Shown here: one piece after another, positions 2-63,182 of the stretch | Layout: each line of letters starts with the position of its first letter | Numbering within the stretch: position 1 is the stretch's first letter | Translations under genes and position numbers: made by a program | Origin: Candidatus Kapaibacterium sp. | Lineage (GTDB): Bacteria > Bacteroidota > Ignavibacteria > OLB7 | Direction: 5' to 3' | Assembly (NCBI GenBank): GCA_035539855.1 | Contig: DATLHO010000153.1 | Coordinates: forward strand, 2,151-66,150 | Length of the DNA: 64,000 nt | Notes under the pieces: model-generated | Seen by the model: only the letters and a program-made list of their open reading frames with translations | What the model was told of the DNA's origin: nothing | Databases searched by the model: none

Positions 2-1135
2 CTACGAGCGGTAGGAGCGTCCCTTCCAGACGACTGTCGGGCGCATCAGCAGGAAGGGAACGACGAGCGCCTGCGCGACGAAGTAGAACTCGAAGCTCAG
101 GAAGTAGCGAAGGATCGACGTGCGTCCGAGGCGTTGCAGCGTCGGGGTCATCACTGCGAGGTCGAAGACGAACTTCGTCGACCACACGACGATCCACGGC
201 ACGACCCCCGCGAACGGAGCGATGACGACCGCCGCCATCATCAGCGCCGCGATGACGAGCACCATCCAGCCGCGCACGCCGGTCTCCATGCCGCCCCGCG
301 ACCAGCGCTGCTTCTGCGAGAGCACCTCCATCAGCGACGCGCACGGTAGCGTCACGATCTCGGTGTCCTTCGTGCACGGATAGACCACCCGACGACCGCG
401 GTCGTGCATCGCGCGAAAGAGCGCGTAGTCCTCGGTGACGCTGAAACTGACGGCGCGATACCCGCCGACCTGGTCGTAGGCCTCGCGACGGAACGCGAAG
501 TTGTTGCCGATCACGCCGAGCGGGACGTTGAACGCGAGCCCGGCCGCGGCCAGCGACTGCAGGTGAATCCAGTCGAGCTGCTGGACGGCGCTGAACTGAT
601 CGTGCGCGCTGATGACGGTGAAGCCGCCGAAGGCGTCGACGCCGTCGACGAAGTGCTCGACGACCGAGCGCGCCCACGTCGGCGGTGCCACGCAGTCGGC
701 GTCGGTCAGCAGCACGATCTCGCCGATGGCATGATCGACCCCCTGGGCGATCGCGCGCGCCTTGCCGCGCGTCGGCGACGACTCCTCGCGCGTCGTCACG
801 ACGGTCACGCGATCCGGCGCGGTGTCGGCGATCCGATGCATGATCGCGCCGGTCTCATCCTCGGATTGATCGTCGACGGCAACGATCTGCAGGCGATCCG
901 CCGGACAGTCCTGCGCCAGGAGCGACTCGAGGCAGCGCGCGATGTTCGGCTCCTCGTTGCGCGCGGCGACGAGAATGGTCACACGCGGCCACGACGGCGG
1001 AGCGCTCCGGCGCACACGAGGCACGCGACGCTGTCCGAACAGGAAGAAGGTGTACTCGAGCGCGTACAGGCCACACGCGAGCCAGAGGAACGATTCGATC
1101 ATAACGGGAGGGCAAAGGTAGCACCGACGCGGCAA
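2..1135 (-). CDS. Family 2 glycosyltransferase, membrane-anchored. It is partial: the C-terminus runs off the left edge of the window. The start could instead be the Met at 1102.
   Basis: The translation has a GT-A fold signature (VAVDDQSED, then a DAD/DxD-like motif) and an N-terminal transmembrane helix. The ORF reaches the window edge with no stop codon. Confidence 0.7.
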   Translation of the reverse strand: MPRRCYLCPPVMIESFLWLACGLYALEYTFFLFGQRRVPRVRRSAPPSWPRVTILVAARNEEPNIARCLESLLAQDCPADRLQIVAVDDQSEDETGAIMHRIADTAPDRVTVVTTREESSPTRGKARAIAQGVDHAIGEIVLLTDADCVAPPTWARSVVEHFVDGVDAFGGFTVISAHDQFSAVQQLDWIHLQSLAAAGLAFNVPLGVIGNNFAFRREAYDQVGGYRAVSFSVTEDYALFRAMHDRGRRVVYPCTKDTEIVTLPCASLMEVLSQKQRWSRGGMETGVRGWMVLVIAALMMAAVVIAPFAGVVPWIVVWSTKFVFDLAVMTPTLQRLGRTSILRYFLSFEFYFVAQALVVPFLLMRPTVVWKGRSYRS

Positions 1136-2914: not shown

Positions 2915-4030
2915 TTAGGGGAGCCAGGTGCGGACGGCTTTTGCGAGGAGTGCGGGGGCTTCGGTTGGTTGGGGGACGGTCCCGTCCGGGACGGGCAGGG
3001 GGATGATGGTTGCGCCGAGGCGGGTTTCGAGCTGCTCATGGGGTCCGCCGAGCGATCCGGTGAAGACGACGACCTGGCGCTCGGCACGTCGGGCGCGCTC
3101 GCAGACGCGGGCAACGCCCTTGCCGAGGAAGGTCTGGCGGTCGACCCTGCCTTCGCCCGTGATGATCACGTCGGACATGTCGGCGAGACGATCGAAGTCG
3201 ACCGCGTCGAGCACCGCCTCCGCCCCACTCACCAGCCGCGCGTCGAAGAGCGCCGCGAGACCGGCTCCGATGCCGCCGGCGGCTCCGGCTCCCTGCAGTT
3301 GCGCGACGTTTGCTCCGAGCGAGCGCGTCGCGACCGAAGCGAAATTCCGACTTCCTTCCTCGAGCATTCCCACCATCGTCGAATCAGCACCCTTCTGTGG
3401 CGAGAACGCCAGGGCGGCTCCTTCGGGTCCGAGGAGCGGATTCATGACGTCGCAGAATCCCGTCACGCGCATCCCGGCGAGCTCCGGCAGCATGCGGCTG
3501 ACATCGATCGTGGCGATCTCGCCGAGCGATCGACCGATCGGTCTCAGCGGAAAGCCGCGCCGGTCGAGGAATCGGGCGCCGAGCTCCGCCGCCATACCGA
3601 TGCCGCAGTCGTGGGTCGCGGTGTCGCCGAGTCCGATGAGCACCTCGCGCATCCCGGCGTACGCGATCGCGCGCAGCAGTGACCCGATGCCCGCGGTCGA
3701 GAGTCTCGACGGATCGCGACGCGACGGGTGAACCTCCGCCAGCGCAAGACACTCCGCCACTTCGATCACCGCGACCTTTCCCGGCAGCTCACCCCATCGC
3801 GCTTCGATCCGCCGGCCGAGCGCATCGGCGCACGGCACCACGTGAATGCGTCCGCCGCGCGCGCGCACGAGCGCCGCGACGGTGCCGCGGCCGCCGTCGG
3901 CCAGCGGCAGCTCGGCGACCGACCACGCCGGGCGGGCGGCGACGATCTCCGCGGCGATGATCGCCGCGGCGTCCGCGGCGGAGAGCGTCCCCTTGAACGC
4001 GAGCGGTGCGACCAGTATGCGGTGTGGCAT
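2915..4030 (-). CDS. Glycerate kinase (GlxK/GarK family).
   Basis: Full-length similarity to glycerate kinases, including the ITGEGRVD motif and Gly-rich nucleotide loops. Confidence 0.8.
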   Translation of the reverse strand: MPHRILVAPLAFKGTLSAADAAAIIAAEIVAARPAWSVAELPLADGGRGTVAALVRARGGRIHVVPCADALGRRIEARWGELPGKVAVIEVAECLALAEVHPSRRDPSRLSTAGIGSLLRAIAYAGMREVLIGLGDTATHDCGIGMAAELGARFLDRRGFPLRPIGRSLGEIATIDVSRMLPELAGMRVTGFCDVMNPLLGPEGAALAFSPQKGADSTMVGMLEEGSRNFASVATRSLGANVAQLQGAGAAGGIGAGLAALFDARLVSGAEAVLDAVDFDRLADMSDVIITGEGRVDRQTFLGKGVARVCERARRAERQVVVFTGSLGGPHEQLETRLGATIIPLPVPDGTVPQPTEAPALLAKAVRTWLP

Positions 4031-5769
4031 CAGAATCGATTGACGAGTCCTACGAAAACCTTGCCCGTGTCGAACGAGTCATCGCGACTCAGCGCGAACG
4101 AGAAGCGGATGAGTCCGAGCGGCGATTCGATCTGCGCCGCGACGCCGTAGCCGAGCAGCCAGTACTCCTGCGCGTCGACGCGGCGCAGCACGTCCTCGGG
4201 TCGCGACGCATACCCACCATCGACGAACAGCGCTGCGAACGATGTGCGCGAGAGCAGCACGCGCGTCTCGAGGTTGCCCCAGACGCGACGTGATGCGCGG
4301 AACTCGTCCTCGCGGTAGCCGCGCACGGTCGACTGTCCGCCGATGCGGAACAGATCGCTCTCCTCGAGGAAGTTACCGCGGATCTCGCCGCCGTGCACGC
4401 TGGCGGCCACGACGAGCGCGCCACCGAGCGACATGAACGCGTCGAGGTCGGCGACGATCCGCTGTCGGAATCCCGCGTCGCCGAGCAGCTCCGCGCTGCA
4501 GTCGGTGGTCGAGCGAATCGACTTCGAGCCGATCGCGACCGAGGTCGACAACAGCGCGCCACTGACCGGGTTGATCGGGTTGGTGCGCGTGTCGAAGACG
4601 ATGCCGATCGACGTGCCGAGCGAGCTGCTGCTGAGCAACTGATTCTCGCAGGGGCGGAGCGTATCGAGCTCAGGAAGAGTTTCGTCGTAGGAGCCACCGA
4701 GGCGCACCGACCACGCATCGAGAAATCCGTAGGACCCGTCGAGGGTGAACGAGCGCTGCACGTAGCTCGGCAGCGCGATCGAGGCGATCTCCTGTCGCTG
4801 GCGAAACCCGACCTCGATGTCGATCGGCAGGCGGAAGACCCAGGGCTCGCCATAGCGCACCTCGAGCATCTGCGAGGGCTTCGAGCGCTCGAAGCGCACG
4901 GCAAAGCGCCGTCCGTCGCCGAAGGGATTGCGCAGCGCGAAGTTCAGGTGACCGGTGAGGCTCCCCTGCTCTCCCGGCCGATCCGGAGGCTGGTAGCCGA
5001 GGATCCCGTCGAACGTGTTCGGCGTGCCCTCGACCACCCGCACGAGGATGCCGTAGCCGCCGGAGTCCGTGCGGTAGAGCTGCGGCTCGGCGACCTCGGC
5101 AAACAGATCGAGTCGCTCGAGCCTGGCGCGCACCTGCCGCGCGAGATCGTCGTTGAACGGCGTGCCGCGGCGCACCGCGACGGCCGCGATGATCAGCCCC
5201 CGGTCGGTCTCGGTGTTTCCTTCGACATCGATCTCGCCCACGAGAACGCGCTCGCCGGTCTCGATCGCGATCGTCGGCGCCGCCGTGGCGGCGCTGTCGT
5301 CGATGGTGAGGTCGCCCAGACGGGCGACGGCAAGCGGATAACCGCGCGCGGCGAGCGCCACGACGACCGCGTCGAGCAGCTCGGTCACGCGACCGGGTGA
5401 GAAGGGATTGCCGACGTAGGGAGATTCATCGAAGCCGCCGAGACGGACCAGGGCGGCGAGAGAGTCGGGCGAGAAGACGGGAGCGGCGAGTCGGTATCGG
5501 GGTCCGTCCGAGAGCACGACCGAGTCGCCGGAGACGACGACGACCGGAGCGAGGTATCCGGCGGCGGCGTAGAGCGCGTGCAGCGAATCGACGGCGCGCT
5601 CGCGCGGCAGCTCGCGCACGATCGCCGCGACACGCTCGGCCGGTACGATGCTTGCTCCGATGACGGTCGGGCCGGACGTCTGCCCGGCGAGATCCGACGC
5701 GCCGCCGAACACGATCACCGTGACGGCGACGAGCATCCGAAGCAGGCGCGGCGCGGGCCCTGGGGTCAC
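4030..5769 (-). CDS. Omp85 (BamA/TamA) family outer-membrane beta-barrel protein with POTRA domains.
   Basis: It has a signal-peptide-like N-terminus, POTRA-like repeats, and a C-terminal barrel with alternating hydrophobic residues that ends in the aromatic residue F (…LVNRF). Confidence 0.65.
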   Translation of the reverse strand: MTPGPAPRLLRMLVAVTVIVFGGASDLAGQTSGPTVIGASIVPAERVAAIVRELPRERAVDSLHALYAAAGYLAPVVVVSGDSVVLSDGPRYRLAAPVFSPDSLAALVRLGGFDESPYVGNPFSPGRVTELLDAVVVALAARGYPLAVARLGDLTIDDSAATAAPTIAIETGERVLVGEIDVEGNTETDRGLIIAAVAVRRGTPFNDDLARQVRARLERLDLFAEVAEPQLYRTDSGGYGILVRVVEGTPNTFDGILGYQPPDRPGEQGSLTGHLNFALRNPFGDGRRFAVRFERSKPSQMLEVRYGEPWVFRLPIDIEVGFRQRQEIASIALPSYVQRSFTLDGSYGFLDAWSVRLGGSYDETLPELDTLRPCENQLLSSSSLGTSIGIVFDTRTNPINPVSGALLSTSVAIGSKSIRSTTDCSAELLGDAGFRQRIVADLDAFMSLGGALVVAASVHGGEIRGNFLEESDLFRIGGQSTVRGYREDEFRASRRVWGNLETRVLLSRTSFAALFVDGGYASRPEDVLRRVDAQEYWLLGYGVAAQIESPLGLIRFSFALSRDDSFDTGKVFVGLVNRF

Positions 5770-6386: not shown

Positions 6387-6435
6387 TACGAGTTGGATCG
6401 GATGACGGTGGGAGCATTCTAGTAACTTTGCCCGC

Positions 6436-7623
6436 ATGAATATAGGAATTACATGCTACCCCACGTATGGCGGTAGCGGTGTCGTCGCGACGGAGCTGGG
6501 CAAGGAGCTCGCGGCTCGCGGCCATAAAGTCCACTTCATCTCCTACGCGCTTCCCTTCCGGCTCGACGGCTTCCACGAGAACATCGTTTATCACGAAGTC
6601 GAGCTTCCTGATTACCCGTTGTTCGAGGGCAGTCTCTACCCGTTGTCGCTCACCAGCAAGATGATCGACGTCGTGCTCTACGACGAGCTCGACGTGCTTC
6701 ATGTGCACTACGCGATCCCGCACGCCTCGAGCGCATACAACGCGAAGCAGATCCTCAACGAGCAGGGACGGGACATCAAGATCATCACGACGCTGCACGG
6801 TACGGACATCACGCTGATCGGTCTGGATCCGACACTGCTTCCGCTGGTGCGATGGTCGATCGAAAAGTCCGACGGCGTCACGGCGGTCAGCCGGTTTCTG
6901 CGCGAGAAGACGCTGTCGAACTTCAACATCGACCGCGAGATCGAGGTCATCCCGAATTTCGTCGACACGCAGTTGTGGTCGAGGACGGAGGACAACCGCA
7001 AGCGGTGCCAGTTCTCACCGAACGGCGAGCCGGTGCTGGTGCACATCAGCAACTTCCGGCCGGTCAAGCGCGTGGCCGACGTCATCAGGACATTCAAGCT
7101 CGTGCGCGAGAAGATGCCGGCCAAGCTGCTCATGGTCGGCGACGGACCCGACCGCGCCGAGGCCGAGCGGCTGTGCCGCGATCTGGAGATCGTCGCCGAC
7201 GTGCGCTTTCTCGGCAAACAGACGGCGCTGCCGGAGATCCTCTCGGCGAGCGACCTGTTTCTGATGCCGAGCCAGTCGGAGAGTTTCGGACTCTCGGCGC
7301 TCGAGGCGATGAGCTGCGGTGTGCCGGCGATCACGAGCTCGACCGGAGGTCTGTCCGAGCTGGTCGTTCACGGTGTGACCGGCTTCATCGCCGAGGTCGG
7401 CGACGTCGATCGGATGGCGCGGTACGCGATCGACCTGCTGACGCACCGCAAGAAGTTCGAGCAGTTCAGCCGCGCCGCGCGCGAGCGTGCTGCAAACAAC
7501 TTCTCGGCGAACGACATCGTGCCGATGTACGAGGCCTACTATCAGCGGGTGATCGACGGCACGGCGGGCACGGTGTATGCGGGCGGCAACGGCAACGGAC
7601 GCAGGAACAACGACGACGACTAG
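6436..7623 (+). CDS. bshA: N-acetyl-alpha-D-glucosaminyl L-malate synthase BshA (GT4), the first step of bacillithiol biosynthesis.
   Basis: The N-terminus MNIGITCYPTYGGSGVVATELGKELAARGHKVHFIS is the BshA hallmark. The C-terminal GT4 E-x7-E region is present (SESFGLSALEAMSCGVP). Confidence 0.8.
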   Translation: MNIGITCYPTYGGSGVVATELGKELAARGHKVHFISYALPFRLDGFHENIVYHEVELPDYPLFEGSLYPLSLTSKMIDVVLYDELDVLHVHYAIPHASSAYNAKQILNEQGRDIKIITTLHGTDITLIGLDPTLLPLVRWSIEKSDGVTAVSRFLREKTLSNFNIDREIEVIPNFVDTQLWSRTEDNRKRCQFSPNGEPVLVHISNFRPVKRVADVIRTFKLVREKMPAKLLMVGDGPDRAEAERLCRDLEIVADVRFLGKQTALPEILSASDLFLMPSQSESFGLSALEAMSCGVPAITSSTGGLSELVVHGVTGFIAEVGDVDRMARYAIDLLTHRKKFEQFSRAARERAANNFSANDIVPMYEAYYQRVIDGTAGTVYAGGNGNGRRNNDDD

Positions 7624-12099: not shown

Positions 12100-12212
12100 C
12101 GTGAGCTTCCCTCGAGTGATTGATCCTCGCTCGCGGTGGTGGTCCGCGGGCCGGAGGTGTGTGGGTTGAAAGCCCGCTACGCCCCGGCCGTCGCCAAAGT
12201 TACGCTCGCGCG

Positions 12213-17117: not shown

Positions 17118-17278
17118 CCGGCAAAGGTACGAAAGCAGCCATTGCAGAGTGTTGCGAGCGGCGGCCACTGGCGCCGGAGGCTTCGCACGGGCGCGCGAAA
17201 TCCGTACCTTCTGCGATTCAGGACCATTCCACGAGTGCGCCAGGCCCCCTTGGGTCACCGTCCACCGATAGAAGAAGC

Positions 17279-19510: not shown

Positions 19511-19946
19511 AAAGTAAAGCTGTAAGTGAGGAAGGCCCCTGAACGGGGCAAAGGTACGATTCGGGGTCCGATGAACATCATGGACGATGCATCGGTCACG
19601 AGCACTACGGCGAGCCGTCGCGCCCTACGGCAACACTCTGTAAAGGTTACCCGCCGCGGGGTTCAAGGGCCTCTTGATGAACAAAAATTTAGGCATTTTC
19701 GGCCGTTTTTCGAGGACCCGAGCCTTGCATGCGGCCCCGTACGGACGTAAGTTTTCGCCCTCCGAATCGGTGAGCCAGTGCCGCCGCCGTTGAGTTCGGT
19801 CCTGTCCACGGGGCCCTGTCCAGAGGTCCTGATCACAGATGCTGTCGTGCCCCCCCGCGCACGTTCCGTGCGCCAGCAGTGTCGAGAGCTCCGCTCTCCT
19901 TCCCCTCGAGAAATAAACCGCAGTCTTCCATAGAAGGAATTCCCAG

Positions 19947-22256
19947 ATGCGTCGTTTTCTTACCCTTTCACTTTCCGCGCTGACCCTCCTCGGAGCATGC
20001 ACCGATTCGCAGCAGGCGCTGCGCTCGACCGCACCGCGTCCGATTCTCGTCGACGAGTACTCGGTGCTCGACGACACGCGGAAAGGAAAGCCGATGAGCG
20101 ACCAGGCGCTGCTGCGCCGCCTCGAGGAGGCTCGCCGGCACTACCTGCTGGCGATGCGCTCGAGCGAGCGTGGCTACGTCGCCGACGCGGCGACGCACTT
20201 CGAGTCGGCGATGACGATCCTCAACGATCTCATCACCTACCCGAACATCTACGCGAACCCCGAGTTCACGAAGCTCTCCGAGAGCGTCATCCGCGACTAC
20301 GAGGAGGAGATCACCTCGCTCGACGAGATGGATCCGAACTCGAGCTTCTTCGTGCTGCGCGACAAGATCTTCCAGGAGGTCGAGGCCATCCCGGTCGAGC
20401 GTCGCTACAGCGCGCGCGACTCGCGGCTGAGCGACGTGTCCGACTTCCAGATCGAGCTGACCGACAACACGCCGGTGCAGCAGTGCATCTCGTTCTTCAC
20501 CAGCGAGCGCGGCAAGAAGTTCTTTGGCAAGTGGCTCGAGCGCACCGGCCGGTACTTCCCGATGTTCGATCGCATCCTCGCCGAGGAGGGCGCGCCGCAG
20601 GAGCTGCGCTTCCTCTCGATGATCGAGAGCGGCCTGAGCCCGTCGGCGGTCTCGTGGGCGAAGGCGGTGGGACTGTGGCAGTTCATCCCGGGCACCGGCA
20701 AGATGTACGGACTGGCGATCGACTGGGAGGTCGACGAGCGCCGCGATCCGGAGAAGGCCACCCGCGCGGCCGCGCGCTACCTGCGCGATCTCTACAATGA
20801 TCTCGGCGACTGGCACCTGGCGCTCGCCTCGTACAACTGCGGACCCGGACGCGTCAAGTCGGCGATCAACAAGGCCGGCTCGCGCGACTACTGGAAGGTT
20901 CGCCAGTTCCTTCCCCGAGAGACCCAGCAGTACGTTCCGCTGTACATCGCGGCGGCCAAGATCACGATGAACCCCGAGGCGTACGGGTTCATCAGCATCA
21001 ACTACGAAGAGCCGCTCGAGCACGACGTGATCGAGCTGAAGAACTCATACGACTTCGCCGCGATCTCCGAGCACTCCGGCATTTCGGTCGAGGAGCTCAA
21101 GAAGCTCAACCCGCACCTACTGCGCGATCGCCTGCCGTCGACCGGCTCGAGCTACCGCCTGAACGTGCCGCTGCGCGCACCGCGCGATCTTGCGGCGCGT
21201 CTGGAGAAGGTTCCGCCGACCGAGCGCGTGCTCGCACAGTTCACGTCGCACAAGGTGCGCCGCGGCGAGAGCCTGACCGGCATCGCGAAGCATTACGGCG
21301 TCGAGCCCTCGGCGATCATGGCGGCCAACGACATGACGAGCCGCTCGAAGCTCAAGAACGGCGTGTCGATCCGCATCCCGCTCGGCCGCAAGACCGAGAG
21401 CGCCTCGGCCGAGCTTGCCGCGACGAGCGCACCGGCGCCTGCGACGACCGCGTCGACCGAGGCCGGTGAGAGCACGCGCGAGGCGACACCCGTTCTCGAG
21501 CAGCAGCCGGTGGCTGCCGTCGCCGCCCCGGCGGTCGAGCGGCGCGCCGGCACCAGCGAGACGAGCGCGATCGAGCGCCGGCCCGTCGAGCAGCCGCGCG
21601 AGGAGACGCGCCTGGCGTCGGCCGCACGCCGCGAGGAGCCGGTCACGCCGCGCACGTCGGTCTCGACGCGCTACCATCGCGTCGCCTCCGGCGAGACGCT
21701 CACCGGCATCGCCCGCGAGCACGGTGTCAGCGTCGCCGACCTCGCCGAGTGGAACGACATGACGCGCAGCGAGGGCGTCAGGATCGGACAACGCCTGCGG
21801 CTGTTCCGCGACGACCGCGCGCTGGCCTCGTCGAAGTCGCGCAGCAAGGCCGACGAGGATCGCCCGACGAAGAAGCGCGGCTCGGTCACCACGACCTCGA
21901 CGCGCTATGAGACCCACAAGGTCCGCCGCGGTGAGTCGCTCAATTCGATCGCCGAGCGCTACGGCGTCTCGATCGAAGATCTGCGCGCATGGAACTCCGA
22001 TGCGAAGGGCCGCAGTCTTCCTGCCGGCGCCCGCCTGAAGATCTACAGCGAGTCGAGCTCCAAGGGCGACGCGAAGAAGTCGAGCCGCAACTCGAAGAGC
22101 GCCCCGAAGAAGTACAAGGTTCGCCGCGGCGACACCCTCGAGGAGATCGCCTCGCGCTACGGCGTCAGCGTCTCGGAGCTGCGCCGCAACAACCCGAGCC
22201 TCTCGAAGAAGGGAGCCAAGCTCAAGGCCGGCCAGTCGATCTCGATCAAGAAGTAG
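19947..22256 (+). CDS. mltD: Membrane-bound lytic murein transglycosylase (MltD-like) lipoprotein with a C-terminal array of 4-5 LysM domains.
   Basis: A lipobox (LLGAC), the SLT catalytic region ([26 protein letters not shown]), and repeated LysM units ([12 protein letters not shown]…IA…YGVS…L…N). Confidence 0.85.
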
Positions 22257-22275
22257 ACCGACATCGTCAGTGAAA

Positions 22276-22319
22276 ACGCCGAAGGGCTCCGCAGCAAACT
22301 GCGGAGCCCTTCGGCGTTC
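22276..22319. terminator. Bidirectional rho-independent terminator between mltD (+) and cdd (-).
   Basis: A perfect 20-bp inverted repeat (aacgccgaagggctccgcag caaa ctgcggagcccttcggcgtt). On the minus-strand sense it is followed by UUUU; on the plus strand by a weaker ttct. Confidence 0.55.
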
Positions 22320-22340
22320 TGGTGCATCGTGGCCGCCGGA

Positions 22341-22793
22341 TCATCGAGGCCGCTCGAAGCCCTCGAGGTCCTCGGCGCCGAACGGATGCGGCAGCAGCTC
22401 GGCGAGCGTCGTGACCTGGCGCTCGCCCGAAGCGCCGGCGATCACCGTGATCCCCGGAGCGTAGTCGTGCAGGAGCTGGCGACAAATGCCGCACGGCATC
22501 GTCGGGTGCGCCGCATTCGTCGCCACCGCGATCGCCGTGAAGTCCCGAACGCCCTCGGAGAGCGCCTTGACCAGGGCCGTGCGCTCCGCACAGATCGTTC
22601 CGCCGGAGGAGCTCGACTCGACATTGACGCCGGTGAAGATGCGACCGTCGGCGGCCAGCAGCGCGGCGCCGACAGGGAAGCAACTGTAGCGACAACACGC
22701 GTGCGTCATCGCCGCGCGCGCGCTGTCGAGAAGTCGGTCGAGCGCCTCCGCGGACGGCATTTCGAGGCTCGTCGAGGTAGAGGATTCGGACAT
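22341..22793 (-). CDS. cdd: Cytidine deaminase.
   Basis: Zn-binding motifs CAE and PCGxCRQ. The start was set at the internal MSESST. Confidence 0.8.
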   Translation of the reverse strand: MSESSTSTSLEMPSAEALDRLLDSARAAMTHACCRYSCFPVGAALLAADGRIFTGVNVESSSSGGTICAERTALVKALSEGVRDFTAIAVATNAAHPTMPCGICRQLLHDYAPGITVIAGASGERQVTTLAELLPHPFGAEDLEGFERPR

Positions 22794-22811
22794 GCAATAA
22801 CGGCAATCAAA

Positions 22812-22916
22812 TGAGATGTGAACCGCCTGGCCCTCCCTGAGATGTGAACCGCCTGGCCTTCCGTGAGATGTGACCTGCCGGGCATTCCCTGAGATGTGAA
22901 CCGCCTTGTCTTCCCC
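22812..22916. repeat. Four tandem direct copies of a 26-27-bp unit (TGAGATGTGAACCGCCTGGCCYTCCC) in the rarA-cdd intergenic region.
   Basis: Read directly from the sequence. The units start at 22812, 22838, 22864 and 22890. The TGAGATGTGA head is conserved and the tail degenerates in copies 3 and 4. Confidence 0.85.
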
Positions 22917-22933
22917 TGCGGCCGCGGTCCGCA

Positions 22934-24232
22934 CTACCGATCGTCGGTTCCACCGGACTCGTCGCCGTAGCGCTCCGGCCAGTAGCCCTTCAGTCGATCG
23001 GCGATCTTCTTCTCGCCACCTCGCTCCGTCGGTCGGTAGTACACGCGTCCGGCAAGCTCCTTCGGGAAGAACTCCTGCCGAACGAAGCCGCCGTAGTCGT
23101 GCGCGTAGCGGTAGTTGCGTCCGTAGCCCAGGGACTTCATCAGCCCCGTCGGTGCGTTCCGGATGTGCAGCGGCGGCGCCGCGTGCGGATGCCTCCGCGC
23201 ATCCTCCAGCGCGCCCTCGATGCCCATGTACGCCGCGTTGCTCTTCGGCGCGCTCGCGAGGTACGTCGCCCCCTGCCCGAGAATGATCCGCCCCTCCGGC
23301 ATCCCCACCCGCTCGACCGCCATCATGATGTTCGTCGCGAACGTGATCGCGTACGGATCGGCATTGCCGATGTCCTCGCTGGCCAGGATCACCATCCGGC
23401 GCGCGATGAAGATCGGATCCTCCCCCGACTCGATCATCCGCGCCAGGTAGAACAGCGCCGCGTCCGGATCGCTCCCCCGCATGCTCTTGATGAACGCCGA
23501 GATGATGTCGTAGTGCATCTCGCCGGCCTTGTCGTAGAACTGCCGGCTGCTGAACGCCGCACGCACCAGCTCCGAGCCGATCGATGACGTGCCCGCCGGC
23601 ATGAGGTCGCGCGCGAGCTCGAGTCCGGTCAGCAGCTTGCGGCCGTCACCGCCGGAGAGCAGCTTCAGCAGATCGCGATCCTCGATCTCGACGCCCGCCA
23701 GGCGATCGTCGCTCGTCATCGCGCGCTCGAGCAGCTTCTGTAGCGCCTCTTCGTCGAGCGACTTCAACGTGAACACGGCCGAGCGCGACAGCAGCGGAGC
23801 GATCACCTCGAACGAGGGATTCTCCGTCGTCGCTCCGATCAGCGCGATCCACCCCTCCTCCACCGCCGGCAGCAGCGCGTCCTGCTGCGCCTTGTTGAAG
23901 CGGTGGATCTCATCGAGAAACAGCACGAGCTGGCGGCCCTCCGCGTGCGCGGCGCGGCCCTGCTCGATGACCGCGCGCACGTCCTTGACCCCGCTGCTGA
24001 CGGCCGAGAGCTGCACGAACTCGCCGCCGACCTCGGCGGCGAGAATCTGCGCGATCGTCGTCTTGCCGACGCCGGGCGGACCCCATAGGATCATCGAGCG
24101 GAGTCTGCCGCTCTCGACCATACGGCGCAGAGGCTTGCCGGGCGCGATCAGATGATCCTGCCCAACGACGTCGTCGAGATGGCGAGGTCTGAGCCGCACC
24201 GCGAGCGGCGTGATCGACGTTGCTTCGGCCAT
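22934..24232 (-). CDS. rarA: Replication-associated recombination protein A (RarA/MgsA AAA+ ATPase).
   Basis: Walker A (GPPGVGKTT), Walker B (LFLDEIHRF), and the conserved C-terminal MgsA helical domains. Confidence 0.9.
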   Translation of the reverse strand: MAEATSITPLAVRLRPRHLDDVVGQDHLIAPGKPLRRMVESGRLRSMILWGPPGVGKTTIAQILAAEVGGEFVQLSAVSSGVKDVRAVIEQGRAAHAEGRQLVLFLDEIHRFNKAQQDALLPAVEEGWIALIGATTENPSFEVIAPLLSRSAVFTLKSLDEEALQKLLERAMTSDDRLAGVEIEDRDLLKLLSGGDGRKLLTGLELARDLMPAGTSSIGSELVRAAFSSRQFYDKAGEMHYDIISAFIKSMRGSDPDAALFYLARMIESGEDPIFIARRMVILASEDIGNADPYAITFATNIMMAVERVGMPEGRIILGQGATYLASAPKSNAAYMGIEGALEDARRHPHAAPPLHIRNAPTGLMKSLGYGRNYRYAHDYGGFVRQEFFPKELAGRVYYRPTERGGEKKIADRLKGYWPERYGDESGGTDDR

Positions 24233-63065: not shown

Positions 63066-63182
63066 TGCTCTCGGGTTCGTTGGCAGACTGAAAACGCCAA
63101 AGGTACGACGAGCGGTCCGTTCGGACCGCGTCGCGGCGGAAGCGCGCGCCGGGGCCGTGCCCGACGCGCGCCCGCATGCCGT

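Follow-up and report, generated by a model that had tools for sequence, protein, structure and literature searches.

A tandem repeat array, probably a lineage-restricted minisatellite, at the rarA-cdd junction of a soil 'Candidatus Kapabacteria' species

The rarA-cdd junction and its tandem array

The array lies between rarA and cdd, two genes of the minus strand, in the window, i.e., the whole 64-kb stretch of DNA that was analyzed, which is part of a 'Candidatus Kapabacteria bacterium' MAG (Table 1). rarA is the upstream gene of the pair and ends with a TAG stop codon (22936-22934). Its product gave Pfam matches characteristic of RarA/MgsA (MgsA_C PF12002, 5e-66; AAA; RuvB_N), and its homologues are named RarA, one of them being a 'Candidatus Kapabacteria bacterium' entry. 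cdd is the downstream gene and the last of a co-directional cluster. It codes for a cytidine deaminase of the homotetrameric type, and the exact protein is recorded as 'cytidine deaminase [Candidatus Kapabacteria bacterium]'. The only terminator of the cluster follows cdd and is bidirectional, because it lies between cdd and a convergent LysM/SLT gene. Its hairpin exemplifies the form that a terminator takes in this genome, and none was found after rarA. No Shine-Dalgarno motif is used at rarA or at cdd.

Table 1 Features of the rarA-cdd locus, in the order of transcription (window coordinates)
Feature	Coordinates	Strand	Evidence or remark
rarA (mgsA), replication-associated recombination protein A, 432 aa	22934..24232	-	ORF, Pfam, named homologues
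17-nt 5' flank of the insertion, TGCGGACCGCGGCCGCA (minus strand)	22917..22933	-	Missing in L247 and L248, which have the empty site
Unit A, rarA-proximal, 27 nt (one extra G), GGGGAAGACAAGGCGGTTCACATCTCA	22890..22916	-	Orthologous to first unit of L246 and L249
Unit B, GGGAATGCCCGGCAGGTCACATCTCA	22864..22889	-	Orthologous to second unit of L246 and L249
Unit C, CGGAAGGCCAGGCGGTTCACATCTCA	22838..22863	-	One product of the ancestral third unit's recent duplication
Unit D, cdd-proximal, GGGAGGGCCAGGCGGTTCACATCTCA	22812..22837	-	Other product of that duplication
8-nt 3' flank of the insertion, TTTGATTG	22804..22811	-	Contains TGA
Conserved junction motif CCGTTATTGC, immediately 5' of the cdd ATG	22794..22803	-	Relatives compared
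cdd, cytidine deaminase, 150 aa, ATG at 22793-22791	22341..22793	-	Pfam PF00383; exact protein match
Intrinsic terminator after cdd: 20-bp perfect GC-rich hairpin, 4-nt loop, then T-run	22275..22318	-	Sequence

As described in the initial annotation, the array consists of four 26-bp units arranged head to tail (22812-22915) in the 140-bp spacer between rarA and cdd (22794-22933). Tandem Repeats Finder returned a period of 26, 4.0 copies, 83% matches, 0% indels and a score of 152, the highest of the window, the next-best array scoring 65. A repeat search gave start-to-start spacings of 26, 26 and 26 and found no inverted repeat inside the array. The units abut directly, and the earlier statement that this spacer-less array is not a CRISPR was confirmed, as were those that it does not code for protein and that its period is indivisible by 3. 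Its placement upstream of cdd and downstream of rarA also stands, with the correction that both genes are on the minus strand. The order on the transcribed strand is rarA stop, array and cdd ATG, and the unit reads GGGAAGGCCAGGCGGTTCACATCTCA. The degeneration of the units is not strictly progressive as had been proposed: the most divergent one on the plus strand is the third, and the two cdd-proximal units are identical at all but two positions owing to a recent duplication.

Three independent metagenome assemblies (L001, L002 and L003) contain the four-unit sequence of the window without a single base change, and therefore the array is not an assembly artifact. When up to 3 mismatches were allowed, the 21-mer TGAGATGTGAACCGCCTGGCC was matched three times in the window, each time within the array, and none of 100 dinucleotide shuffles yielded any match. 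All four window units contain the 10-nt head, TGAGATGTGA on the plus strand, unchanged, and a search of the 64-kb window that tolerated up to 1 mismatch found it only within the array. The initial annotation had considered both a dispersed and a unique unit; a search covering the window and about 50 kb of related loci found no further copy.

An exact 16-mer derived from the array had no match in IMG/VR viral contigs, and the array showed no similarity to PLSDB plasmids in blastn searches. Translation in the three frames of the transcribed strand gave no match among 5.8 billion protein clusters at E values up to 1; among 1.8 billion representatives there were two borderline matches, which by their sequences we regard as unrelated repeat proteins. 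The head is close to 7-nt periodic, and the pattern TCACATCTCA-N14-18-TCACATCTCA, scanned against genome and metagenome contigs, retrieved heptamer microsatellites of the (TCTCACA)n type, mostly of Bacteroidota, among the matches listed. Among these listed matches, the unit core GGC[AG]G[GT]TCACATCTCA was confined to the Kapabacteria loci. Derivation of the unit from a local duplication of the junction was rejected, as its alignments to the junctions of the window, L247 and L248 scored no higher than those of shuffles (P = 0.36 to 0.99). Homology of the 26-mer to a 14-mer array of L245 was not significant either, 65 of 500 shuffles scoring at least as high. To our knowledge, the unit has no convincing match to a tRNA T-arm, a DnaA box, parS, a LexA direct repeat, a CRP half-site, a PyrR site or a G-quadruplex.

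Copy number and empty sites in related lineages

At the orthologous locus, four units are present in the window and in L001, L002 and L003, and three in L246, L249 and L250. Lineages with three and with four units are 7.3 to 9.0% apart at 4-fold sites, and their rarA genes share 97 to 98% nucleotide identity, indicating that the copy number varies within or near the species level. Units C and D each differ at one position from the single third unit of L249, and the recent duplication from which they stem identifies the array as a VNTR. L253 codes for the same Cdd protein, and its last unit is of the GGGAAGG type, i.e., of the ancestral type. Four contigs with this Cdd allele begin at the array or within it, as seen by direct reading of L001 and L253 and as inferred from gene offsets for the other two; the presence of a VNTR between rarA and cdd would account for several assemblies breaking there.

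More distant relatives have an empty site. In L247 and L248, the rarA TAG codon is followed by CCGTTATTGC; L248 has the full junction TAG-CCGTTATTGC-ATG, and L247 keeps the motif. L245 has three extra bases (TCG) between the rarA stop codon and CCGTTATTGC, and in a relative that carries P0004 the gap between rarA and cdd is 6 nt. The empty site in the more distant relatives indicates that the array and its flanks (130 bp) represent an insertion at a tightly coupled operon junction. With three units in close relatives and none in distant ones, the fallback reading of the initial annotation, a short tandem-repeat element unique to this lineage, is borne out by the comparison.

Regulatory signals and conservation of the units

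The initial annotation had favored an iterated operator upstream of cdd, in which the head (TGAGATGTGA on the plus strand, TTCACATCTCAGGGAA on the minus strand) would be a reiterated transcription-factor site controlling a cdd promoter in the spacer. The location of the array 19 to 122 nt upstream of the cdd ATG is in line with this proposal, and so is the head itself, which is exact in the four window units and in the three units of L249 next to a variable linker. We searched the spacer for promoter elements and found no sigma-70 match. The motif TAnnTTTG is enriched in this genome, with 8 occurrences against 1.2 expected, and 6 of the 8 precede an ORF of at least 100 aa, at a distance of 5 to 96 nt from its ATG; it appears to be a promoter box used by this genome. 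By direct reading, the rarA-cdd spacer contains no TAnnTTTG within one mismatch. The lack of either element in the spacer argues against an operator, as do the 10-nt operon junction of the ancestral state and the lack of a terminator after rarA. Moreover, the head is mutated in two of the three units of L246 (TTCACATTTCA and TTCACATTACA), the core is found nowhere else in the 64 kb, there is no adjacent regulator gene in the cluster, and a 26-bp period places neighboring sites on opposite faces of the helix. The operator is thus not supported by these features, and we consider it unlikely.

Iterons and operator arrays do share with this locus direct repeats, a conserved core, a variable linker and a fixed spacing. 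The array differs from them in having no rep gene, origin or promoter and in that its core is mutated in one lineage. Classic iterons are about 22 bp long, whereas the period here is 26 bp (2.5 helical turns) and the array was inserted at an operon junction.

We then considered how substitutions are distributed. Within units, the core TTCACATCTCAGGGAA (15 to 16 nt, minus strand) is less variable than the linker of 10 to 11 nt, which leaves a small probability of a role as a binding site. Among the window units, 8 of the 16 linker columns but none of the 10 head columns vary (hypergeometric P of about 0.008, with the boundary picked after inspection of the data). In the reconstructed three-unit ancestor, all six variable columns fall inside a stretch of 11 columns, and TTCACATCTCAGGGAA is invariant. 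This clustering of the variation hints at a constraint on the core motif. A parsimony count gave about 2.5 changes in the spacer of the window lineage, 1 in that of L249 and 12 on the L246 branch, and the numbers predicted from the 4-fold rate were about 4.9, 3.3 and 5.3, respectively. The sum, about 15.5 changes for about 13.5 expected, is near the synonymous-site expectation and is unevenly spread over the three lineages. The spacers of the window and L249 differ at 3 of 114 positions, where the 4-fold rate predicts about 8. This similarity could mean that purifying selection acts in those two lineages, and it is a further point in favor of the operator.

The array was also analyzed for RNA structure. 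No match in Rfam 15, at E values up to 10, overlapped positions 22794-22933; the matches obtained nearby were spurious, produced by miRNA models on the hairpin of the cdd terminator. The fold z-scores relative to shuffles were +0.38, +0.40 and +1.29, and +0.94 for the other strand of the array, neither strand folding better than its shuffles. None of the 37 predicted pairs showed compensatory changes; there was neither covariation nor a conserved RNA structure.

A probable minisatellite and its possible consequences

The array is probably a lineage-restricted minisatellite (VNTR), contained in an insertion of about 130 bp that splits the rarA-cdd junction of a soil 'Candidatus Kapabacteria' species. 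We interpret the four repeats as a tandem repeat of recent origin that varies among strains, rather than as a demonstrated regulatory operator. Bacterial VNTRs or minisatellites, which have units of 10 to 100 bp and are used for MLVA typing, are similarly composed of spacer-less, intergenic head-to-tail units; here these are present in three or four copies, with the newest ones nearly identical and the older ones diverged. Nothing essential distinguishes the array from those systems, except that it is found in uncultured Kapabacteria, at an operon junction whose ancestral form, without the insertion, can be reconstructed.

The comparison of relatives shows how the locus evolved. The ancestral junction, as found in relatives, is TAG-CCGTTATTGC-ATG, with a spacer of 10 nt. 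In this species, a segment made up of 17 nt, three 26-nt units and 8 nt was inserted between the stop codon and CCGTTATTGC, and in the window lineage the third unit was then duplicated to yield four units, a step likely mediated by replication slippage or unequal exchange. The ancestral spacing of 10 nt indicates an operon, and the layout of the sequence suggests that rarA and cdd are co-transcribed. The array would therefore form an unstructured intercistronic segment of the RNA. Its main effect would be to separate cdd initiation from rarA termination by 113-140 nt instead of 10 nt.

Ribosomes may bridge this gap by way of an ORF (22341-22934 in the window) whose GTG codon, at 22934-22932, overlaps the rarA stop codon in the sequence TAGTG; the same overlap is found in L249. 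As the 26-nt unit corresponds to -1 modulo 3, every change in copy number shifts the frame of the bridging ORF. In the three-unit alleles (L249 and L246), this ORF ends 13 nt before the cdd ATG, at the TGA of TTTGATTG. In the four-unit allele of the window, it is in frame with cdd, yielding an ORF of 197 aa. Such open frames are to be expected by chance, as a 26-nt unit of this composition has a probability of about 0.4 of containing no stop in any frame. The most likely functional consequence would be a modest, allele-dependent change in Cdd translation, and a specific factor-binding function is less likely than that.

It is doubtful that the array is more than a neutral VNTR, i.e., that it acts as a frame-toggling bridge and/or carries a protein site in TTCACATCTCAGGGAA, with its copy number tuning the expression of pyrimidine salvage. 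If the bridge were frame toggling, the gain or loss of a unit would replace a short coupling ORF by a Cdd with an in-frame N-terminal extension, or the reverse. If the protein site were real, the 16-nt core TTCACATCTCAGGGAA would be a reiterated DNA- or RNA-binding site, e.g., for a GGA binder of the CsrA type. If the copy number did tune expression, the unrelated repeats at the 5' ends of cdd in sister lineages would reflect selection for a tunable junction.

Those repeats raise the related proposal of a selected spacer or contingency locus, at which some tandem repeat would be favored at the 5' end of cdd and its copy number would tune or switch Cdd expression. Three sister lineages have tandem repeats near the ancestral cdd start, no more than about 60 nt away from it: the window lineages with the 26-mer in three to four copies, L245 with a 14-mer in 27 copies, and the lineage of P0122 with a 15-nt repeat (DARLD/E) in six copies, the latter inferred from the protein sequence only. 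The 26-mer and the 14-mer have no significant similarity. The respective junction array is the only Tandem Repeats Finder match scoring at least 50 in the 9.4 kb of L245 and in the 7.3 kb of L246, and it is the top-scoring one of the 64-kb window. The frame also changes with each copy of the 26-nt unit gained or lost, a further point in favor. Conversely, L004, L247 and L248 have no repeat at this place, the 6-nt gap of the P0004 relative is too short for one, and only two copy-number states, 3 and 4, were seen. The N-terminal tail of Cdd is poorly conserved, so that tolerance alone could explain the clustering of repeats there. We therefore give a selected locus of this type little credence.

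It is quite improbable that the array is one locus of a dispersed, MIRU-like family of mobile repeats that insert at operon junctions with an ORF preserving translational coupling. As summarized in two sources (PMC3184786 and PMC12548453), MIRUs (Supply et al. 1997) are tandem repeats of operon junctions with overlapping ORFs. The array resembles them in its position, in the filled and empty sites that different lineages have at the intercistronic junction, in its polymorphic copy number, in its presumably polycistronic transcription and in an internal ORF that begins on the upstream stop codon (TAGTG). Against this stands the lack of a second copy, both across the 64-kb window and across some 50 kb of related loci, whereas MIRUs occupy about 40 to 50 loci per genome; the array is at one locus in the sequence searched. 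Its unit has 26 nt instead of the 40 to 100 given for MIRUs (PMC3184786), and a target-site duplication is not visible. The MIRU ORF, as described there, overlaps the downstream start at -4, but the ORF of the array either runs on into cdd in the same frame (window) or terminates 13 nt ahead of it (L249 and L246), its 3' end in neither case overlapping the cdd ATG. The outcome of the searches of translated sequences, viral contigs and plasmids reported above also counts against a mobile family. Other dispersed families, REP/BIME and ERIC, are similar in being short intergenic repeats within operons; they are palindromic and highly dispersed, whereas there is no inverted repeat inside the unit, and the 64 kb contain no further copy of it.

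A platform for CsrA/RsmA at the RNA level is very improbable. In such a platform, the sequences CA(G/C)GGA(A/G) at the unit junctions would be CsrA/RsmA-type sites, 26 nt apart, that control cdd translation or titrate the protein. CsrA/RsmA leaders and the CsrB/RsmZ sponge RNAs similarly have several regularly spaced GGA motifs on the transcribed strand. The CsrA consensus includes CARGGA, with which CAGGGA agrees, and a CsrA dimer is reported to bridge sites over distances that include 26 nt. GGA, at unit positions 2 to 4, is invariant in the 7 aligned units of the window and L246 and in all three of L249, and CA(G/C)GGA is present at every unit junction of the window, L246 and L249. In addition, the leader of a csrA-like gene on an unrelated contig, L213, contains two TCACATCTCAAGGA repeats. 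csrA accompanies flagellar genes in many bacteria. Some Kapabacteria carry flagellar genes (PMC6338057), which adds some plausibility to this proposal. It is countered by the folding results, as the GGA motifs do not lie in hairpin loops and the lineages share no structure; in CsrA/RsmA-type RNAs, by comparison, the motifs are in hairpin loops and/or overlap the ribosome-binding site, and the array also matches no Rfam family. The GGA closest to the cdd ATG lies about 42 nt upstream of it, in a gene pair that does not use Shine-Dalgarno motifs. In tblastn searches csrA was missing from the window and related loci, and GGA-containing purine runs are common at about 67% G+C.

If the minisatellite reading is true, the array is an ordinary bacterial minisatellite of little biological weight. 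The locus would be of interest if the copy-number-dependent coupling ORF or the reiterated protein site were true, and it would gain interest if the clustering of repeats at the 5' end of cdd in sister lineages were selected rather than tolerated. As a minisatellite, the array would be of minor use as a ready-made strain marker for a soil population of uncultured Kapabacteria, through three versus four units and through the variants among the units. It would also be a clear natural case in which an operon junction of 10 nt was widened to 113-140 nt, with the empty site kept in relatives.

A tandem array between rarA and cdd

Tandem Repeats Finder (TRF) resolved the array into 4.0 copies of a 26-bp period with 83% matches and no indels (score, 152), the runner-up tandem array within the 64-kb window scoring 65. 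A repeat search gave unit spacings of 26, 26 and 26. The head TGAGATGTGA was exact in all four units, A (rarA-proximal) to D (cdd-proximal), and had no occurrence outside the array in the window with up to one mismatch. With up to three mismatches, the unit 21-mer gave three matches in the window, every one inside the array, and none in 100 shuffles; the 16-nt core also gave three, all in the array, for 0.17 expected. The array is real, because three independent assemblies contain it without a single base difference: L001 (JGI 3300038441), L002 (ENA ERZ27256779) and L003 (JGI 3300033550). The four spacerless tandem repeats of the initial annotation were thus confirmed, with a period of 26 throughout, as were the names of the flanking genes, both of which lie on the minus strand.

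Features of the rarA-cdd junction and of related loci (window positions unless a locus is named)
Feature	Position	Strand	Sequence or remark
rarA	22934-24232	minus	MgsA_C 5e-66
cdd	22341-22793	minus	ATG at 22793; PF00383
Array	22812-22915		four 26-bp units, head-to-tail
Hairpin 3' of cdd	22275-22318
rarA stop	first element of junction	transcribed (minus)	TAG
17-nt flank	between rarA TAG and unit A	transcribed	TGCGGACCGCGGCCGCA
Unit A	after 17-nt flank	transcribed	GGGGAAGACAAGGCGGTTCACATCTCA
Unit B	after unit A	transcribed	GGGAATGCCCGGCAGGTCACATCTCA
Unit C	after unit B	transcribed	CGGAAGGCCAGGCGGTTCACATCTCA
Unit D	after unit C	transcribed	GGGAGGGCCAGGCGGTTCACATCTCA
8-nt flank	after unit D	transcribed	TTTGATTG, then CCGTTATTGC, then cdd ATG
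11-mer CCGTTATTGCA	22794-22804
11-mer CCGTTATTGCA	L247 ~1533-1543
11-mer CCGTTATTGCA	L248 ~319-329
11-mer CCGTTATTGCA	L245 ~4368-4378
TAnnTTTG upstream of ORFs	1113-1120, 6423-6430, 12195-12202, 17122-17129, 19549-19556, 63098-63105		mostly TA(A/C)CTTTG
14-nt x 27 array	L245 4428-4798		consensus CGGCACTTCGCGTT
Repeats 5' of csrA-like ORF	L213 ~797-850		two TCACATCTCAAGGA(T/A)GAGA
Heptamer microsatellites (examples)	L019 ~7349-7386; L042 ~4921-4958; L043 ~3281-3318; L045 4094-4173; L032 7251-7287

A co-directional cluster (GCS2, DnaJ-domain, FloA, HAD, HisA-like, rarA, cdd) ends with rarA and cdd. An identical Cdd and a RarA of the same 90%-identity cluster are recorded for 'MAG TPA: Candidatus Kapabacteria bacterium' (HVK38715.1, HVK38716.1), and the closest RarA homologues carry the names Bacteroidota, Chlorobi and Kapaibacterium. 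A likely bidirectional intrinsic terminator lies between cdd and the convergent LysM/SLT gene: a hairpin whose perfect 20-bp GC-rich stem is closed by a 4-nt loop and followed by a T-run. Its stem is identical in the related locus L246, with a different loop and closing bases, and it was the source of spurious miRNA-model matches in an Rfam E-value search. Nothing like it was found 3' of rarA.

The array itself matched no Rfam family at E values up to 10. It was not predicted to fold stably (RNA/DNA fold z-scores, +0.38 for the transcribed strand, +0.94 for the other strand, +0.40 in L246 and +1.29 in L249); there were no compensatory pairs among its predicted base pairs, and no palindrome was found in it. 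Translated in the three transcribed-strand frames, it had no match at an E value of ≤1 among 5.8 billion protein clusters and two borderline matches among 1.8 billion representatives, both of which we judged, from their sequences, to be unrelated repeat proteins. IMG/VR and PLSDB gave no match to the array, and among the matches listed, from about 240 loci, the unit core was present only in L001 to L003. The unit thus showed no visible dispersal within the sequences covered.

As the heads are nearly 7-nt periodic, collection scans with the head pattern returned heptamer microsatellites. Among the matches listed, (TCTCACA)n-type runs, with the variants TCTCATA, TTTCACA and GTCTCAC, occurred at more than 200 loci, mostly in Bacteroidota (Pedobacter, Flavobacterium, Dyadobacter, Cyclobacteriaceae, Saprospiraceae and Chitinophagales), and many stopped a few nucleotides 5' of an ATG. 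Several came after a complementary (TGAGATG)n run, with which they would form long repeat-built hairpins.

Insertion and copy number among relatives

Two more distant relatives lack the array, their junctions reading ...TAG CCGTTATTGC ATG (L248) and ...TAG CCGTTATTGC AGG... (L247). In a further relative (protein P0004), the called rarA and cdd genes are 6 nt apart. The window, L246 and L249 retain CCGTTATTGC immediately 5' of the cdd ATG. Given these empty sites and the retained CCGTTATTGC, the units together with their 17-nt and 8-nt flanks constitute an insertion (130 bp in the window), which sequence comparison places between the rarA stop and CCGTTATTGC, within a former 10-nt operon junction.

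In at least five lineages, the 11-mer CCGTTATTGCA stands unchanged next to either the rarA stop or the start of cdd; L247 (CAGG) and L245 (CAAG) have kept it although the ATG after it has gone. It may therefore be a conserved signal, possibly a context for translation initiation or reinitiation.

Close relatives differ in copy number. L246 (JGI 3300078389), whose rarA has 97.3% nucleotide identity to that of the window (4-fold-site divergence, 9.0%), has three units, GGGAAGACAGGGCGGTTCACATTTCA, GGGAATACCCGGCAGTTCACATTACA and GGGAATGCCTGACGGTTCACATCTCA. L249 and L250 (Logan SRR34572458 and SRR34572449; 4-fold divergence, 7.3%) also have three, a unit A the same as in the window, a unit B that differs by one change, and GGGAAGGCCAGGCGGTTCACATCTCA as their only third unit. 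This match across lineages indicates that units A and B are orthologous. Window units C and D differ at two positions, and each is one position away from the third unit of L249; they therefore represent a recent duplication, which puts the variation in copy number at or close to species level. Four contigs with this Cdd allele start at or inside the array, as read directly for L001 and L253 and deduced from gene offsets for SRR8439261 and SRR9007738 (Logan). L253 encodes the same Cdd protein as the window; it begins within the array, the last unit of which has the ancestral GGGAAGG form. Since units share exact repeats of no more than ~21 nt, these breaks in independent assemblies of the species plausibly reflect strain-level heterogeneity in copy number or sequence in the sampled populations.

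Three- and four-unit relatives and empty sites thus support the array being a copy-number-variable minisatellite in a lineage-specific insertion that splits the 10-nt rarA-cdd operon junction. A lineage-specific repeat had been the second choice of the initial annotation.

We counted spacer changes by parsimony over the window, L249 and L246, and obtained ~2 to 3 (plus the duplication), ~1 and ~12 (plus a 1-nt indel), respectively, where 4-fold-site branch lengths predict ~4.9, ~3.3 and ~5.3. The totals (~15.5 versus ~13.5) indicate a spacer rate close to the synonymous-site expectation. The changes are unevenly distributed, with an excess in L246 and a deficit between the window and L249 (3/114 versus ~8 expected). 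In the window units, 8 of the 16 linker columns but none of the 10 head columns are variable (P ~0.008, with the boundary chosen after looking), and the six columns that vary in the reconstructed ancestor with three units all fall at positions 6 to 16, leaving TTCACATCTCAGGGAA unchanged. These low-power comparisons give a modest hint that the core may be constrained, or homogenised by gene conversion; two mutated heads in L246 contradict this hint.

Possible roles of the array

Binding of a CsrA-type protein at the CA(G/C)GGA motifs of the array seems improbable. Such a motif does occur at each unit junction, and its GGA does not vary among the seven aligned window and L246 units and recurs in each of the three L249 units; however, none of the motifs is hairpin-presented or overlaps the initiation region, and no csrA was found in the window or the related loci. 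The comparison was prompted by L213, a locus from the pattern scans in which two repeats 25 nt apart lie directly 5' of a csrA-like ORF starting at ~855/888 (MLVLGRCVGEGI*LIGHDIKVTV...VHREEVY, containing an in-frame TGA). The first repeat is able to fold as the hairpin UCUCA-AGGA-UGAGA; the second overlaps a purine-rich ribosome-binding region. Both look like CsrA autoregulatory sites. Some Kapabacteria possess flagellar genes (PMC6338057), which makes a csrA-fliW pair conceivable.

The units contain no stop codon in any transcribed-strand frame (chance expectation, P ~0.4). A GTG at 22934 of the window overlaps the rarA stop (TAGTG); in frame with cdd, it adds 47 codons to give a 197-aa ORF. 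The corresponding GTG of L249 opens a 33-codon ORF ending at a TGA 13 nt 5' of the cdd ATG, and in L246 a GTG-initiated ORF runs to the same TGA. As the unit is 26 nt long, each copy gained or lost shifts the frame of the bridging ORF. MIRUs are described as tandem repeats at operon junctions whose ORFs overlap the genes on either side; they are transcribed polycistronically and are polymorphic in copy number (PMC3184786, PMC12548453). The array resembles them in its bridging ORF overlapping the rarA stop at an operon junction, but differs in having no -4 overlap at the downstream start and in unit length, which falls outside the MIRU definition. Its nearest known counterparts are MIRU loci and bacterial VNTRs, and it belongs to the latter. 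Statistically, the bridging ORF cannot be told apart from a chance arrangement.

A sigma-70 scan of 22200-23400 gave no match. TAnnTTTG occurs eight times in the window for 1.2 expected, a number reached in none of 100 shuffles, and six of the eight lie 5 to 96 nt upstream of the ATG of a same-strand ORF of at least 100 aa, three of them only 5 to 11 nt upstream. This Kapabacteria genome appears to use a Bacteroidota-type -7 box, and the positions suggest Bacteroidota-type promoters and mRNAs that often have no leader or a very short one. Read directly, the rarA-cdd spacer has no TAnnTTTG within one mismatch, its closest candidate being CTCATTTG, with two mismatches (CTCACTTG in L246). Because no such box was found in the spacer, the ancestral junction is 10 nt and rarA has no terminator, co-transcription of rarA and cdd is the most economical reading, which would make the array a stretch of intercistronic RNA and not a promoter or operator region. 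On the same grounds, the iterated transcription-factor operator preferred by the initial annotation is unsupported.

The comparisons show an insertion into the rarA-cdd junction and a unit duplication, most likely by slippage. The minisatellite would be transcribed as an unstructured intercistronic spacer and would affect Cdd translation no more than modestly, depending on the allele.

Other repeats at the cdd 5' end

The junction carries other sequences in other relatives. The L004 spacer is 74 nt long and repeat-free. In L245 (RarA identity, 88%), a 14-nt x 27 array (TRF score, 273) is inserted just after CCGTTATTGCA, after which the ancestral cdd ATG is now AAG, and the array region fills ~570 bp between rarA and cdd. 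An opposite-strand gene of 172 aa called in this repeat region is probably spurious. The 14-mer has no significant similarity to the 26-mer. TRF hits scoring at least 50 were confined to the junction array in both L245 and L246. A further relative (RarA P0002; JGI 3300071325 and 3300071358) has a Cdd, P0122, whose N-terminal tail repeats DARLD/E about six times (ADARLDDAPLDDARLEDARLDDARLEDARLDE), so that, judging from the protein sequence, the 5' end of its cdd would carry an in-frame tandem repeat of 15 nt. That unrelated tandem repeats recur at the 5' end of cdd across sister lineages is the one feature worth follow-up.
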